Sequence record: PX104380.1 | DNA length: 64,000 nucleotides | Source: a phage | Direction: 5' to 3' (one strand) | In this document: positions 43,796-49,899 of the stretch, piece after piece | Layout: the number at the start of each line of letters is the position of its first letter | Position numbering within the stretch: position 1 is the stretch's first letter | Program-made: the position numbers and the translations under genes | The notes under the pieces: model-generated | Seen by the model: only the letters and a program-made list of their open reading frames with translations | The model's database searches: none | What the model was told of the DNA's origin: nothing

Positions 43796-43825
43796 ATTAT
43801 ACCACATCCTTGTGGTAAAGTAAAC
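43796..43825 (-). promoter_or_regulatory. early-type promoter
   Basis: GTTTAC-N18-TATAAT upstream of ORF 43567-43770. Confidence 0.55.
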
Positions 43826-45642
43826 TACTGGCTCATCCATTCTTTACGAAGGTCAGCATTATCTCCCATGAGCATTTCAAAAAGCTCATTCCAGTTCTCA
43901 GGAAGTTTAACAACATCATATACCGGATTTTGAATCATCTCACGATATTCAGATTTTTCCAAAGAGCCAAGTCCCTTAATATAACGGATGCTATGTTTAG
44001 GTAGAGCATCTTTAGCACTCTCATATTCAGCGACTGTATAAAACCATTCTTGTTTTTTACCGACCTGAGCGATGATTACAGGAGTTTTGACAAAGCGAAT
44101 TCTTCCTTGTTCAAACAGTTCTGGCCAATTACTAAAAAATCCGAGCAGAGAAGGATAAATGCTTCCTAGACCATCATGGTCAGCATCGGTCATAATAGCA
44201 ATATTATGATAATTCAAGTTTTCAGCTTTTTCACCAAGAACTAATCCAGTGATTGCGCAAATATCAAACAGTTCTTTGTTTTTAAGCATATCAGCATATG
44301 ACATACCCCAACTGTTGAGAACTTTACCGCGCAATGGATAGCCACCATGAAGTTCTTTATCACGAACATCGATTAAATAACCAATTGCAGAATCACCCTC
44401 AGTCAAGAAAAGAGTAGTGTCAGCATCTTTACCACAAAGATTCGCTTTGATATGTTTATGAACCTTAGCTTTAGAAGCCTTTTTAGCTGCTTTAGTTTCT
44501 GCTGCTTTTTCTGCCGCCAATTTACGAGCCAAGGCAGCTTCAATAATCGGCATTAAAATTGCTTCATTATTTAGAATAGCGCGTGAAATCTTTTTAGCAT
44601 CAAGTTGAATATGACTACGAATTTCGCCAAATGGAGAAGTCAAACGCTCTTTAGTTTGAGAATCAAATCGCATGTTTTTCATATCACGGACAAACATAAC
44701 GATAGTCAAACATTCTTTAACGCGTGCTTTAGTCACATCAATTTTGAACTTACGTTTGATTTGTGGAATAAGGTCTTCACAAATATCATCCATAACACAG
44801 TCAATGTGATGGCCACCATTCTTAGTGTGAATGTTATTCACATAAGTTAATTGACGAAAACCATCCGGTGAACGACCAACCGCAATAGAGCAATTTTCTT
44901 GTTCTTGAACGATAGCATGCTCATCATATTGGCGTGCATATTTCTTAAAATTGCCCTGAACCTTTTTACCATTAAAGGTAAATTGAATATCAGGATAAAC
45001 TACTGCAAGTGTCTGGAGACGATCTAGTGTAATGTCAAGATAAACTTGGGACAGCTCATTAGTTTCAAATGACATAAAATCAGGAATGAAAGTAACACGA
45101 GTTCCTTTCCATTTTCCAGGAATAGTTTCCCATGATTTATTTTCCATGCCATTTGAACAACGAACTACAATATTATTTTGACCATCACCAGTTTCACCGA
45201 CAAACATCACAGAAAAAATGTTTGTCAAACTAGAACCAACACCATTCATACCGCCAGTGACGCGTTCTTTATCATCACCGAAGTTACCACCTGCTTTTGG
45301 AATAGTCCAGGCAGCAACAGGACCAGGAATTTCTTCACCGGTAGGTGTTTTGACCATCGCTTGTGGAATACCGCGACCGTTATCTTCAACTGTTACCTGA
45401 TTATTTTTAATGGTAACATTAATTTTATTCGCGAATTTAAACTTAGTACGAATACCTTCATCTACTGAGTTATCGATAATTTCATCAATAAGCTTAACAA
45501 GACCAGGTACATACTGAACACTTTCCCATTTACCAAACAGAAAGCGCTCATGCATTTCATTAGCAGAAGAGCCAATATACATGCCGCTACGCTTTTTGAT
45601 ATGTTCAATATCGCTCAGAATTTTAATTTCATTCTTAATCAT
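43825..45642 (-). CDS. 39: DNA topoisomerase II large subunit gp39 (GyrB-like), contiguous 605 aa
   Basis: GHKL ATPase N-terminus (IDEIIDNSVDE, GRGIP), TOPRIM region; single uninterrupted ORF. Confidence 0.9.
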   Translation of the reverse strand: MIKNEIKILSDIEHIKKRSGMYIGSSANEMHERFLFGKWESVQYVPGLVKLIDEIIDNSVDEGIRTKFKFANKINVTIKNNQVTVEDNGRGIPQAMVKTPTGEEIPGPVAAWTIPKAGGNFGDDKERVTGGMNGVGSSLTNIFSVMFVGETGDGQNNIVVRCSNGMENKSWETIPGKWKGTRVTFIPDFMSFETNELSQVYLDITLDRLQTLAVVYPDIQFTFNGKKVQGNFKKYARQYDEHAIVQEQENCSIAVGRSPDGFRQLTYVNNIHTKNGGHHIDCVMDDICEDLIPQIKRKFKIDVTKARVKECLTIVMFVRDMKNMRFDSQTKERLTSPFGEIRSHIQLDAKKISRAILNNEAILMPIIEAALARKLAAEKAAETKAAKKASKAKVHKHIKANLCGKDADTTLFLTEGDSAIGYLIDVRDKELHGGYPLRGKVLNSWGMSYADMLKNKELFDICAITGLVLGEKAENLNYHNIAIMTDADHDGLGSIYPSLLGFFSNWPELFEQGRIRFVKTPVIIAQVGKKQEWFYTVAEYESAKDALPKHSIRYIKGLGSLEKSEYREMIQNPVYDVVKLPENWNELFEMLMGDNADLRKEWMSQ

Positions 45643-45976: not shown

Positions 45977-46354
45977 TCACTTAAATTTAATGGCTTGAAG
46001 GAGACTAATAATTCTTAAACGGCTTCTTTCATCTTTAACTGTAAAGGAAAGAGGGTCACCAGATTTCATAGTGATAGTGCATCCAAAATCAAAATTTTCG
46101 GAAACTTCTTCGAAGAAGTCAAATTCTTCAGCATAAATTAGAACATTACTCTGCATACTGTGAAGAATTTTTCCATCATTTCCAGATGCTGTACTAATCA
46201 TCGTAACATTATGACCTTTCATATCTTCAACGATAAATTCGCTTGTAGATATTACAGCATTAATAGAACCATTCCTATAAATAGCAGACATTAGATATTT
46301 CTTTTCTTCACCTTCGCGAACACGATATTTCTTACCGATTTTAAACATAATCAC
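45977..46354 (-). CDS. hypothetical protein, 125 aa
   Basis: ORF track. Confidence 0.5.
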   Translation of the reverse strand: MIMFKIGKKYRVREGEEKKYLMSAIYRNGSINAVISTSEFIVEDMKGHNVTMISTASGNDGKILHSMQSNVLIYAEEFDFFEEVSENFDFGCTITMKSGDPLSFTVKDERSRLRIISLLQAIKFK

Positions 46355-46529: not shown

Positions 46530-46934
46530 TTATTCCTTAAAGTGTGCTTTCAACATCTGATACAAGGACCATGCTTGTTCATTATTTTCAATAGTAACTT
46601 TCATTACCGGGAATTCTGAGAAATCTTCTATCTGTTCTTGCTCTTCAGAAGCTTGGTATGGATTTTCAACTTCATCAAAGAACCCAGCTTCGTTAGTAGA
46701 GAGCCAGATAAAGTTTTCGTCAAGGATATCACCGCCGGCACAACGTTTGAGTACACCTGTGGATGTCATAATTTTAGTAGGACGCCCAAGATAATCAGCA
46801 TCTAAAATTTTAAAAGGCTCCATACCTAAACGTCGTGCATAGATTCCGTTATCAGTATGGTCTTTAATAAAATTTTCTTGAGCTTGTTTATTTTTAAATT
46901 GATACCATTTATTAACTTCAAATTTAATAGCCAT
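46530..46934 (-). CDS. hypothetical protein, 134 aa
   Basis: ORF track. Confidence 0.5.
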
Positions 46935-47149
46935 TAATAAATTTCCTTCCAGTAAGTTGTGCCGTCTTCAGTAATTTCACGGAATACACCATAAATCGGT
47001 TGTTTATCACCGACTTTCTCATACACATAAACCGAAGTCAAGTGAGTAAACTTAACGGTATGTTCCTTTTGAACCACTACCAAATCTGGATCGAATAATA
47101 CATCTTCAAATTCGTCATTAGTACAGTTCTGAACAATTTTACGTTTCAT
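46934..47149 (-). CDS. hypothetical protein, 71 aa
   Basis: ORF track. Confidence 0.45.
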
Positions 47150-47162
47150 TACAATTTCCTCA

Positions 47163-47432
47163 TTAATTGAACAGCGGAGCGATACGTTTCAGAAGAGTAG
47201 CAGCACCTTTAGCGAATTTTACATCATGAAAAACAGTTTCTTCTTCTGTAACAACTCGAACTTTAATATTTTCACAATCCCAATTTTTACGAACAATCTT
47301 CAAAAGCTGCAGTAAATCTTTACATTCAGCAATATCGATAACACATCCACGAGAATCTTCCATTATCGCACGATAACCGTAAGCCATACCATAATCGTTG
47401 AAAGATTGCTCGATGATAATTAAGTTTTCCAT
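47163..47432 (-). CDS. hypothetical protein, ~89 aa
   Basis: Second ATG at 47432 has GGAG at correct spacing. Confidence 0.45.
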   Translation of the reverse strand: MENLIIIEQSFNDYGMAYGYRAIMEDSRGCVIDIAECKDLLQLLKIVRKNWDCENIKVRVVTEEETVFHDVKFAKGAATLLKRIAPLFN

Positions 47433-47529
47433 TTTATTCTCCAAGTTGTTTTCTGTATCAGTAGTTGATATTGATATAGTACCATAATCAACTACTGATG
47501 TATATAGTTTTATGAAAAAATTTTAAACT

Positions 47530-48027
47530 TTATGCATAGCGAGCTTTGCTGTAGTGTTTAATCCAACTTTCAGGAATGACTTTGTATGTTCCCAAAAATA
47601 CCACGTTGTACAACTTAACACCATCTTCTACCCACTGATCGGTAATGTATGCACACATAGCACGAGTATGATGTTTTTGAACAACCCCTTCCTCATCTTC
47701 AGTAAATTCGAATTCATAAGGAGCAACGAACTTAATAGCTTGACCGAGTTTCCACTTAAAGTCTACACCTACATGTGAAGTATCAATCGTTTCAATTCCT
47801 TTAGCAGGAACAGCTTTCAAAAACGCAGACTCAAGAAATTTCGCACGAACATAGCCAAACTGAGGTTTAGACTTTCCATCTTTAGGAATGATACGCACTT
47901 TTACTTCAGAATCTTCATCTTTAACACCATGTTTAAGCTGAATGCTTACAATTTCGACCAATTTTCCTGCTGCTTTAGAACGGGATTTATCAGATACACG
48001 AGCAATTTCACCAATATTAATAATCAT
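47530..48027 (-). CDS. hypothetical protein, 165 aa; paralog of the next gene
   Basis: C-terminal AYITDQWVEDGVKLYNVVFLG similar to GWVTDQWIEDGVELLNVVHAG of 48104-48649. Confidence 0.5.
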   Translation of the reverse strand: MIINIGEIARVSDKSRSKAAGKLVEIVSIQLKHGVKDEDSEVKVRIIPKDGKSKPQFGYVRAKFLESAFLKAVPAKGIETIDTSHVGVDFKWKLGQAIKFVAPYEFEFTEDEEGVVQKHHTRAMCAYITDQWVEDGVKLYNVVFLGTYKVIPESWIKHYSKARYA

Positions 48028-48071
48028 AGTTATCTCTCACTTGTTAAAAAGATTTTATACTCCACGGGACC

Positions 48072-48101
48072 AGAGTATAATGGTCCCAAGAGTTTGTAAA
48101 C
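48072..48101 (-). promoter_or_regulatory. possible early-type promoter
   Basis: GTTTAC present; -10 less clear (TTATAC/TACTCT); flanking inverted repeat GGGACCA/TGGTCCC. Confidence 0.35.
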
Positions 48102-48103
48102 TA

Positions 48104-48649
48104 TTAATTTAAAATAGCTACCACCGCACTACGAGGTACTACACTAAAATCACCTGCATGAACAACGTTCAGAAGTTCAACACCATCTTCAATCCACTGG
48201 TCTGTTACCCAACCACAGATAGGATTATCAAAAGGACGACGGATAGACACAGCAGCACACAACAGGTCTGTAGGGTCTTGTTCTTCAACTTCTTGGAACA
48301 GGATGAACTCATCTTCATAAACCAGGTTTTTCTTTATTTTGTTATTATCTAACCGGCGACCGTGGATGACGTAAGATTTGTCAAACCACTCACTTTTGGC
48401 AAATTCTTCAACAATAAATTCGCCTTCGCCAAAAACATCAGTCAGAGTTTTATGACCAGAAATCAAGGCATTAGTTTTAATTTTAGGTTCAACCAGTTTG
48501 TAGGTTTTGCCGATTTCAATAGCGATAGTCATAGTAGGTTCCTTAATTTCCAGTGGTTTAACAGGGCATACATAAGTGCTTACAACATCAAAATCAATCA
48601 GTTTAGCTACCGGATTTGGTATGTATTCAGGATTATAATTAAATTTCAT
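48104..48649 (-). CDS. hypothetical protein, 181 aa; paralog of previous gene
   Basis: Shared C-terminal motif with 47530-48027. Confidence 0.5.
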   Translation of the reverse strand: MKFNYNPEYIPNPVAKLIDFDVVSTYVCPVKPLEIKEPTMTIAIEIGKTYKLVEPKIKTNALISGHKTLTDVFGEGEFIVEEFAKSEWFDKSYVIHGRRLDNNKIKKNLVYEDEFILFQEVEEQDPTDLLCAAVSIRRPFDNPICGWVTDQWIEDGVELLNVVHAGDFSVVPRSAVVAILN

Positions 48650-48651
48650 AA

Positions 48652-49152
48652 TTATCTCATTTCAATAAAATCTACGAGTTCAGCATGCGATTTGCGGAAC
48701 ATTACTTGGTGCCCACCAATGATAACTTCATCTTCAGGAACTTCGTATACAGCGAGATAAAATCCTTTAGAAGATAATTCTTCCCGCTCTTCTCGTGTGA
48801 ACCATCTCATCATATCATACTCACTAGCGAAAGCAAAATGATAAAGAGCTATAAACCATCCTGGAATATGATATTCTACTCCAACATAATCTTTCTTGAA
48901 CTTAGTATTAATTACTATATTAGCGTTTTTAACTAATAGTTTATCTTCGTGTGGTAAAGGAATTCTTTTATTATTATCGCTATGATGCATAAAATTAGGT
49001 CTGTCATAACCTACGTGTAATAGCCACTCTTCGCTCCATGAATCTATTATACTCCTGTACGGAGTTATTTGAACACAAAGATTTCGACGTATTGTTATAG
49101 CATCTTCATAATCAAGAATACTAAACGATGATTCAACACGATAAATTTTCAT
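48652..49152 (-). CDS. hypothetical protein, 166 aa
   Basis: ORF track; ATG verified; early-type promoter upstream. Confidence 0.5.
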   Translation of the reverse strand: MKIYRVESSFSILDYEDAITIRRNLCVQITPYRSIIDSWSEEWLLHVGYDRPNFMHHSDNNKRIPLPHEDKLLVKNANIVINTKFKKDYVGVEYHIPGWFIALYHFAFASEYDMMRWFTREEREELSSKGFYLAVYEVPEDEVIIGGHQVMFRKSHAELVDFIEMR

Positions 49153-49176
49153 TTTATTATCCTCAGTAGCTATGGT

Positions 49177-49209
49177 GTTATAATACCATAACTAACCGAG
49201 GAAGTAAAC
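49177..49209 (-). promoter_or_regulatory. early-type promoter
   Basis: GTTTAC...GGTATTATAAC upstream of ORF 48652-49152. Confidence 0.5.
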
Positions 49210-49215
49210 AACTTT

Positions 49216-49899
49216 TTATCGTTTTGTTGGAAGAGATAGAGGATCACACTCTTCCTCTGACGGAGCATCTTCAAGACCCATAGCATATCGCAAAGCATAC
49301 TTCATCATCAGGATGTCTTTCGCACAGTCATGAATAGAATCATGCGCAACGAATCCATTTAAGGTTCCCTTCGGAAGAGGACACGTGGTCATATCACGAA
49401 CAAGGAGAAGTGCTTCAATTCTAGTACGAATATCACGCTGATTCCAAAATTTACAAGGTTCTAACTTAAATGTATCAAGCTCATTCTCGGAAACGCCGTT
49501 AAGACGTTGAATATCGCGAATGAGATCGACTAAAATTGGAAAATCAAACGACATTCCACGGCACCAGCCTTGAGATTTCCAAGGATCGATATTATGTGCA
49601 TTGATGTAATCATTGAATTTTGCAATACCATCAATGGTGCTTACATCTTCATCTGATGGTGCAATATTTTTTCTAGCTTCAGGCGATTGATTTTTCCACC
49701 ATTCAATAGTGCTTTTAGTAAAAAGACGGTGTCCTTTTTGACTTTTTAAGTCAAATTTAATTTTAATGCCACGTGAAACTAGTTCATCGAATGTTTCAAC
49801 AACTTCCGGGTTAGGGTCAAAGGCAATAACAGCCAAATCAATAACAGCTGCCTTTTCACCGCTTCCCATTGTTTCAAAATCTATAATAAAATCAAACAT
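49216..49899 (-). CDS. dexA: exonuclease A (DnaQ-like 3'-5' exonuclease), 227 aa
   Basis: 227 aa; MFDFIIDFETMG exo I motif; matches recalled T4 DexA. Confidence 0.9.
   Translation of the reverse strand: MFDFIIDFETMGSGEKAAVIDLAVIAFDPNPEVVETFDELVSRGIKIKFDLKSQKGHRLFTKSTIEWWKNQSPEARKNIAPSDEDVSTIDGIAKFNDYINAHNIDPWKSQGWCRGMSFDFPILVDLIRDIQRLNGVSENELDTFKLEPCKFWNQRDIRTRIEALLLVRDMTTCPLPKGTLNGFVAHDSIHDCAKDILMMKYALRYAMGLEDAPSEEECDPLSLPTKR

Follow-up and report, generated by a model that had tools for sequence, protein, structure and literature searches.

In the 64,000-nucleotide stretch of phage DNA analysed here (sequence record PX104380.1, hereafter the window), two adjacent genes encode two-domain proteins that are paralogous in their C-terminal domain and carry different N-terminal domains. 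The first, of 165 codons plus stop (47530..48027, minus strand), is the ortholog of the phage T4 gene motB; the second, of 181 codons plus stop (48104..48649, minus strand), stands in the position of T4 motB.1, and is called open reading frame 2 (ORF2) below. Both reading frames had been singled out, as tandem paralogs with a conserved C-terminal segment, in a preliminary description of the window made without database searches, and both are indeed present there on the minus strand. The paralogy holds at the level of one domain, the common core is under purifying selection, both proteins have a two-barrel architecture, and their net charges are opposite.

The assignment of the 165-residue protein is straightforward. 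It is identical to T4 MotB (NP_049626) at 148 of 165 positions (90%) from end to end (E 3e-110), and the locus corresponds to that of T4 motB, which bears out the comparison with T4 MotB recommended in the preliminary description. The Pfam family PF17613 (motB, Modifier of transcription; gathering cut-off 25 bits, profile length 162) matches it at profile positions 1-162 with 334.3 bits, and phrog_1671 with an E-value of 1e-76. Patterson-West et al. 2021 (PMC7827196) define four categories of MotB homologues, two of them with N-terminal domains of their own that differ from that of MotB; the 165-residue protein fits MotB proper (Category 1), being similar to T4 MotB in both the KOW N-terminal and the C-terminal domain.

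ORF2 belongs to the MotB.1 branch. It matches phrog_2333 over its full length (E 5e-89), the family under which T4 MotB.1 is annotated in record OZ209023, and it is flanked by the motB.2 homologue immediately upstream and by motB immediately downstream, all three in one orientation, which is also the setting of T4 motB.1; its stop codon (48104) and the start of motB (48027) both fall on the minus strand. A search for relatives returned 233 homologous proteins at E<=1e-3, the best 120 clusters of which are 72-95% identical to ORF2 and come largely from T4-like coliphage genomes or contigs; one of the proteins listed in Table S4 of PMC7827196, ECML134_009, is 94% identical to it. Within the published categories ORF2 fits the MotB.1 branch (Categories 2-4), with a C-terminal domain nearer to MotB.1 (51 of 57 residues identical to the T4 MotB.1 C-terminal domain, versus 17 of 39 for MotB) and an N-terminal domain that by sequence is not of the KOW type. 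It is not of the T4 type (Category 2): BLASTP aligns only ORF2 residues 103-153 with T4 MotB.1 residues 64-115, and the nonsynonymous divergence (dN) of the N-terminal domain is 0.92. Given this lack of a T4-type N-terminal alignment, ORF2 represents another class of N-terminal domain. A hidden Markov model (HMM) of the MotB family aligns with ORF2 only at positions 122-158, with no full-length match, so that ORF2 does not fit MotB proper either. The window-type allele is widespread: the 2.2 kb around the gene pair match 682 GenBank phage records, 388 of which cover at least 80% of the query, versus 106 for a 518-nt T4 motB.1 query, although the two query lengths differ and the counts are therefore a rough guide to allele frequency.

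The homology between the two proteins is concentrated in a core that spans residues 116-154 of MotB (...MCAYITDQWVEDGVKLYNVVFLGTYKVIPES; 47566..47682, minus strand) and residues 136-174 of ORF2 (...ICGWVTDQWIEDGVELLNVVHAGDFSVVPRS; 48128..48244, minus strand), as found by BLASTP, hhalign and HMM alignments. By BLASTP the two segments share 17 of 39 identical residues and 27 of 39 positives without gaps (E 6e-12), and the peptides quoted in the preliminary description for the conserved segment are present in both proteins. The Smith-Waterman score of MotB against ORF2 is 109, compared with 30.1 +/- 4.9 (maximum 59) in 2000 shuffles (z = 16), and when alignments of 20 ORF2-family and 32 MotB-family sequences are compared by hhalign, 38 columns match with a probability of 98.6% (E 5.9e-16). 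An HMM built from MotB homologues alone matches ORF2 residues 142-178 (45 bits, E 1e-14). The Pfam motB profile finds ORF2 residues 140-176 at 34.6 bits, above its cut-off, through profile positions 117-153 of 162 only, a partial match to the C-terminal core, and the PHROG 1671 profile also detects the ORF2 C-terminus. The paralogy proposed for the two genes thus holds in the C-terminal module by BLASTP, shuffling, hhalign and HMM alike. What the preliminary description had called an unassigned domain is the C-terminal part of Pfam PF17613 / PHROG 1671, and its relationship to MotB.1 has been published (PMC7827196). The motif CGWVTDQW-EDGVELLNVVHAG is invariant across the 20-sequence ORF2 alignment, position 153 being I, V or F, and MotB homologues with as little as 37% identity still retain the core motif.

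Beyond this core, MotB and ORF2 show no alignable sequence, and no full-length alignment was obtained. The N-terminal parts give a Smith-Waterman score of 29, reached or exceeded by 29% of shuffles (p ~0.29), and hence no significant similarity. The preliminary description had named as grounds against its own proposal a similarity limited to a short low-complexity stretch with no significant full-length alignment. The similarity is indeed short (~38 residues) and does not extend to the full length, but the shared segment of 37-39 residues is non-repetitive, is not of low complexity and is highly significant. A six-frame scan of the window with an HMM of the C-terminal domain returned no copies beyond motB and ORF2.

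At the DNA level the two cores are only 57% identical, and the sole repeat between motB and ORF2 is a 13-nt match in the EDGV codons, from which we conclude that the similarity is old and has been kept at the protein level. A comparison of ORF2 with its T4 counterpart gives 12 synonymous and 5 nonsynonymous differences in the core codons 144-181 (synonymous divergence, dS, 0.67; dN 0.06; dN/dS ~0.09), and dN of 0.92 in the N-terminal domain, where it is saturated, versus 0.08 in the C-terminal domain. Among the 181-residue alleles, synonymous differences in the core number 0-5 and nonsynonymous ones 0-1, while the dN/dS ratio of the N-terminal domain is ~0.1-0.4 in diverged pairs and 0 between the two closest alleles. 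The core, with dN/dS in the range of ~0-0.2 and dS of up to 0.67, is clearly the most constrained part of ORF2, though the counts are small.

Structure prediction, which the preliminary description had recommended, was carried out with AlphaFold2 (AF2) and yielded two-domain models with disordered linkers for both proteins. In the MotB model (predicted local distance difference test, pLDDT, 79.8), the basic N-terminal domain (residues 1-67; 47827..48027, minus strand) is a predicted KOW/SH3-like small barrel with an isoelectric point (pI) of 9.75, to which the Pfam KOW profile (PF00467) gives no sequence match. It is followed by a predicted disordered inter-domain linker (residues 68-89; 47761..47826, minus strand), with pLDDT <50 at residues 69-83, whose length varies among homologues and which carries large indels in the MotB family alignment. 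The C-terminal domain (residues 90-165; 47533..47760, minus strand; pLDDT 84-95) is all-beta with a 3-10 turn before the last strand. It is roughly neutral (pI 7.0), and MotB as a whole has a pI of 9.0.

The ORF2 model comprises an N-terminal domain (residues 40-124; 48278..48532, minus strand), which appears to be a GoF/Frd.2-type LSm-like/SH3-like barrel, and an acidic MotB.1-type C-terminal domain (residues 125-181; 48107..48277, minus strand). Five strands are predicted in the former (49-52, 77-85, 92-99, 104-111 and 118-121; pLDDT ~55-80), and in the latter, which spans 133-178, strands 133-136, 144-154, 157-164 and 167-172 precede a 3-10 turn and the last strand. This layout of five strands within residues 49-121, a linker and a C-terminal domain agrees, with moderate confidence, with that of the LSm-like family. 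ORF2 has a pI of 4.8 as a whole and of 4.2 in the C-terminal domain, and the net charge of the shared core is -4, compared with -1 in MotB. Strands, a short 3-10 turn and a last strand, the order of SH3-like small barrels, recur in the C-terminal domains of the two proteins as well as in the N-terminal domain of MotB, and in these models both domains of both proteins look SH3/Tudor/KOW-like and not OB-fold. Sequence searches of PDB returned single weak matches only, with E-values of 0.72 and 0.17 for the two proteins.

ORF2 begins with a 39-residue extension (residues 1-39; 48533..48649, minus strand), which contains the motif DFDVVSTYVCPVKPL (DFDV..Y..P.KPL) and is lacking in T4 MotB.1; its limit is set by the T4 motB.1 ATG, which aligns with Met40 of ORF2. 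Residues 1-41 are disordered in the AF2 model (pLDDT <50). The motif, generalised as D-x-D-[VI]-x-S-x-Y-x-x-P-[IV]-K-P-L at residues 19-33, reappears elsewhere as an inter-domain linker in longer or rearranged relatives (P0242, P0245, P0247, P0249 and others), and this reuse at other positions argues that the segment is translated and conserved as a peptide, though it is predicted to be disordered. The first 39 codons are nearly invariant in DNA among 181-residue alleles whose N-terminal domains have dS of 0.3-0.56, a pattern suggestive of a recombination boundary or of nucleic-acid-level constraint. A short linear motif for interaction is one possible role of the extension, a recombination boundary another, and the two could coincide. 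An AAGGA-N7-ATG sequence is found inside ORF2 at Met40 and could give rise to a shorter ORF2 isoform.

The relatives of the ORF2 N-terminal domain include products of the same gene block. The phrog_622 family, to which the window goF homologue and a 125-residue ORF belong, matches ORF2 residues 44-125 (E 3e-4), and the 125-residue ORF is the window protein closest to this domain (BLASTP with ORF2 residues 42-151, 117 columns, E 4e-4). When 1.84 billion cluster representatives were searched with the ORF2 profile, only 21 hits emerged; their architectures are shuffled and include the window type, the T4 type and a third type of N-terminal domain (P0245). P0242 has two tandem LSm-like domains, while relatives of 245-250 residues (P0036, P0072, P0083, P0092, P0111, P0112, P0120 and P0243) carry an extra domain of ~80 residues (MNTFDPNAKYI..ILKKMTKGNEFRILSI..) before the linker motif and are thus three-domain proteins. 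Several of the proteins P0248-P0256 combine a MotB-like KOW N-terminal domain (MKIGSRVYVS.LS.SKVAGE) with a MotB.1-type core; all of these but P0248 align over the full length with the MotB HMM. The motB.1 locus is a hotspot of domain accretion and exchange. One further hit, P0252 (1459 residues, 12 matched stretches), was discarded as a Calx-beta-like repeat protein with a score inflated by its repeats. Separately, P0257, a 43-residue database protein corresponding to window positions 48107-48190 and 49102-49152, has the first 17 residues of MotB.2 (MKIYRVESSFSILDYED) fused to GVELLNVVHAGDFSVVPRSAVVAILN (GVELLNVVHAG...), which implies a natural deletion that removed most of motB.2 and motB.1 in some phages. 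A comparable remnant may be the 'Category 3' peptide of 29 residues from RB69 in PMC7827196.

We propose that MotB and ORF2 are built of small beta-barrels on flexible linkers, and that one ancestral C-terminal barrel would be common to both, of which a core of ~38 residues (three strands) is still recognisable by sequence. MotB would join this barrel to a basic KOW-like one, and the overall acidic ORF2 would join it to a GoF/Frd.2-type LSm-like barrel preceded by the disordered 39-residue extension. The shared barrel would then serve both proteins for docking or oligomerisation, most likely with one and the same partner or nucleoprotein complex, while the N-terminal domain would set the ligand: DNA for MotB through its basic KOW-like barrel, and RNA or protein for the MotB.1-type protein through its LSm-like barrel. 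We lean, with restrained confidence, towards this reading of the two modules. A MotB-like gene was probably duplicated long ago and the N-terminal domain then replaced, and exchange of N-terminal domains among alleles of T4-like phages appears to be ongoing.

The similarity itself could in principle reflect chance, composition, a conserved DNA element or recent gene conversion, and the shortness of the stretch (~38 residues) with a 13-nt DNA match inside it would fit such an origin; the z-score, the hhalign probability and the independent detection by Pfam and PHROG refute it statistically, while the low DNA identity with its many synonymous differences and the persistence of the motif in remote MotB homologues speak against it as well, so that its probability is practically nil. 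In particular, the 57% DNA identity rules out that the two cores are a recent DNA repeat or were homogenised by recent gene conversion. Whole-gene tandem duplication with N-terminal halves that diverged in place beyond recognition, the model of the preliminary description, has more in its favour, since motB and ORF2 are adjacent and co-oriented, both N-terminal domains are small SH3-like beta-barrels of similar size for which a very deep common origin is possible, and proteins with a KOW domain and a MotB.1-type C-terminal domain show that a whole-gene duplicate once existed. We nevertheless consider it unlikely: no sequence signal connects the two N-terminal domains, that of ORF2 has a detectable affinity for another family (GoF/phrog_622), and at least three very different types of N-terminal domain occur on near-identical C-terminal domains at one locus. 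This variety, together with the contrast between N-terminal and C-terminal dN in the comparison with T4, is a signature of module exchange, and the existence of KOW/MotB.1-type relatives alongside unrelated N-terminal domains fits duplication with N-terminal replacement better than divergence in place. The earlier interpretation is therefore partly supported, being right at the domain level and wrong in detail: the C-terminal paralogy stands, whereas the N-terminal halves do not look like diverged copies, one protein having a KOW-like domain and the other a GoF/Frd.2-type LSm-like domain with an extension.

Several points weigh against the proposed explanation. Docking, as a putative function of the C-terminal domain, is deduced from charge and conservation, and the order of evolutionary events is likewise a deduction. 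The ORF2 model has a mean pLDDT of 62, which corresponds to moderate confidence. The link of its N-terminal domain to GoF is weak at the sequence level (E ~1e-4), and hhalign of the ORF2 family against a GoF alignment gives a non-significant probability of 0.5% with narrow profiles (effective number of sequences, Neff, 1.4 for the query and 1.2 for GoF); the MotB family against the GoF family is not significant either, the alignments in both comparisons being too narrow (Neff 1.2-2.1) to decide how the N-terminal domains are related. Deletion and amber mutants of T4 motB.1 have no laboratory phenotype (PMC12152347), so that any function would be conditional. Finally, PMC7827196 suggests DNA binding as a possibility for each of the two MotB domains and describes the C-terminal one as an OB-fold. 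An alternative that follows this proposal of 2021 would have the shared barrel itself bind nucleic acid in the manner of OB-fold or cold-shock proteins, with the N-terminal domain as an accessory and both proteins as DNA or RNA binders. We find this alternative rather improbable. The charge pattern and the matches in fold speak against the shared module as the DNA-binding portion of MotB, and a place for the acidic 181-residue protein in the functional class of nucleoid-associated DNA-binding proteins is doubtful.

A more specific form of the docking reading, which we regard as speculative and give little credence, holds that the DQW-EDGV barrel is not the DNA-binding OB-fold proposed in 2021 but an acidic module of SH3/Tudor-like type for docking or oligomerisation, by which MotB and MotB.1-type proteins contact one another or share a host partner such as H-NS/StpA on DNA. 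If this were true, the MotB.1-type protein would be a modulator or competitor of MotB.

The T4 reference sequence bears on the experimental record of MotB.1. The records NC_000866.4 and AF158101.6 read GACCAATGGATTGGAAGATGG, with an extra G between the DQWI and EDGV codons of motB.1, whereas MT984581, HM137666, KJ477684, OZ209023 and RB55 read ...ATTGAAGATGG without it. The T4 reference thus has ATTGGAAGAT, compared with ATTGAAGAT elsewhere, at ~7.2 kb of NC_000866.4, equivalent to window positions 48180-48190, and nine further T4 and RB59 records gave 517-nt and not 518-nt matches. With the extra G, the annotated MotB.1 has 119 residues (13.8 kDa) and ends in GRWR; without it, MotB.1 has 143 residues (16.2 kDa) and an intact C-terminal domain. 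Programmed frameshifting was considered as the cause and dropped, as five other T4-type records lack the extra base. In the study of Kim et al. 2025 (PMC12152347), the MotB.1 monomer is given as 13.8 kDa, GenScript is named as the maker of synthetic genes and plasmids except where stated otherwise, and NC_000866.4 coordinates are provided for the recombination-donor fragments; from the mass, the synthesis and the coordinates together it follows that this study probably assayed a truncated MotB.1, which probably lacked the last 28 residues of the shared module. Functional tests of MotB.1 thus appear to have been made only with the 13.8-kDa form, which is cut inside the flagged motif, and if the specific docking proposal is true, the published negative results for MotB.1 would need to be repeated, because the reference-derived protein lacks half of the module.

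The 83-nt spacer between ORF2 and motB folds with -23.5 kcal/mol (z -4.1) and contains a hairpin (48059..48093, minus strand) with arms at 48081-48093 and 48059-72 and an 8-nt loop at 48073-48080, which overlaps the predicted early promoter of motB. The loop is inverted relative to the T4 motB promoter hairpin: the window sequence TTATACTC is the exact reverse complement of GAGTATAA, the loop of T4 and of five other phages examined. In the T4 orientation, TTTACA-17-TATAAT points towards motB, whereas in the window, where TTTACA is found at 48095-48100, the inversion takes TATAAT off the motB strand and places it on the opposite one (TTTATA-16-TATAAT, plus strand). About 10 of 447 GenBank phage records have the window loop orientation (e.g. 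KIT03, G4507, KMB42, fPS-2, NiC89 and MLF4), and in fPS-2 a predicted early promoter is annotated at the hairpin site. The GenBank phage collection is the basis of these counts; in IMG/VR, scans with the exact pattern of each hairpin orientation gave no match. A generic scan for sigma-70 promoters and terminators over 46900-49400 gave no more sites than shuffled sequence. The natural inversion of the loop provides a ready-made test of motB transcription.

The window derives from a T4-like coliphage (Tequatrovirus), and the best match of the 2.2-kb query is Salmonella phage Jbel (97%), with the 25 best of the 682 records at 93.9-97% identity over the full query. Genes at the locus are coded on the minus strand and follow the order dda, three small ORFs, dexA, the motB.2 homologue, ORF2 and motB, and downstream of motB a 93-residue ORF, cef, goF, a 58-residue ORF, the 125-residue GoF-like ORF, an 86-residue ORF and gene 39; this is the order of the T4 map, apart from a few insertions. 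The motB.2 homologue (166 residues; 48652..49152, minus strand; phrog_1106) has the position and length of T4 motB.2 and lies 2 nt upstream of the ORF2 start. The goF homologue (134 residues; 46530..46934, minus strand; phrog_622, E 2e-40), whose homologues are named mRNA metabolism modulator or GoF, is a relative with an LSm-like N-terminal domain in the same gene block as the motB pair. The 125-residue GoF/Frd.2-like ORF (45977..46354, minus strand; phrog_622, E 1e-28; phrog_2333, E 1e-3; weak match to Pfam FRD2) is placed between the 86-residue ORF beside gene 39 and the 58-residue ORF beside goF, the latter being zinc-ribbon-like (CxxC...CxxC) and in the position of T4 39.2. The 93-residue ORF (47163-47444; phrog_3720) between motB and cef probably has 89 residues, starting from the ATG at 47432. 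Neither this ORF nor the 125-residue one has a T4 counterpart at its position, and with the GoF/Frd.2-like one counted, at least three paralogs with LSm-like N-terminal domains are found inside a 3-kb part of the window. An AT-rich inverted repeat between the motB stop and the next ORF (47457-47499; 20-nt arms, 85% complementary, 3-nt loop), with no T-run after it, may be an element of RNA processing, stability or termination. Gene 39 of the window, for the large subunit of topoisomerase II (43825-45642), is a single ORF of 605 codons, whereas the T4 gene 39 product is annotated with 516 residues and gene 60 is separate and upstream, with mobA in between. Searches of NCBIfam and PADLOC gave no matches, indicating no curated bacterial family and no tie to a known defence system.

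The finding on the gene pair is real but ordinary and statistically solid. That T4 MotB and MotB.1 have a C-terminal domain in common and differ in their N-terminal domains was reported by Patterson-West et al. 2021 (PMC7827196, sections 3.1 and 3.2 and Discussion), who also state that either gene may derive from duplication of the other, and the N-terminal domains of MotB.1, GoF and Frd.2 were described as one family of LSm-like/SH3 topology by Kim et al. 2025 (PMC12152347). All three elements, namely the related C-terminal domains, the dissimilar N-terminal ones and the idea of a duplication, are therefore already known. The same holds for the allele class of 180 residues (window type), already catalogued in PMC7827196, where the Fig. 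S1 consensus contains MKFNYNPEYTPNPVAKLIDFDV... (MKFNYNPEY...) and Table S4 lists ECML134_009. The present finding is of value as a blind yet correct recognition of a genuine paralogy between domains at a locus for host takeover, and the frameshift in the T4 reference and the inverted promoter loop add modestly to it.

Among the closest known systems for ORF2 is T4 MotB.1, which occupies the same locus, is likewise acidic (143 residues in the re-sequenced records QPI17238 and ADJ39729; 119 in NC_000866.4) and shares DPTDLLC and CGWVTDQWIEDGVELLNVVHAG in the C-terminal domain; only the last strand and helix of its N-terminal domain are aligned with ORF2 by BLASTP. In the LSm-like GoF/Frd.2/MotB.1 family, wild-type members are without demonstrated RNA-related activity, and wild-type GoF and MotB.1 have a far smaller effect on a reporter than GoF(D25Y) (PMC12152347). 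At the level of fold, SH3-like small beta-barrels of the KOW, Tudor, chromo and PWWP kinds are among the closest known structures, as exemplified by the Spt5 KOW domain (5ohq), the tandem Tudor domain of 53BP1 (3lgf) and the tandem SH3-like KIN17 (9coj). The window MotB has the length class, the two-domain layout and the place of T4 MotB, downstream of motB.1 and upstream of cef, and differs from it in the C-terminal-domain hairpin (residues 104-120), where 3 residues are inserted and several others substituted. Two studies of T4 MotB (PMC6070864, PMC7827196) describe tight non-specific DNA binding, copurification with H-NS and StpA, toxicity on expression, a doubled burst size, altered H-NS footprints and derepression of part of the H-NS regulon; by analogy, given the 90% identity, the window MotB would be expected to bind DNA and associate with H-NS/StpA in the same way.

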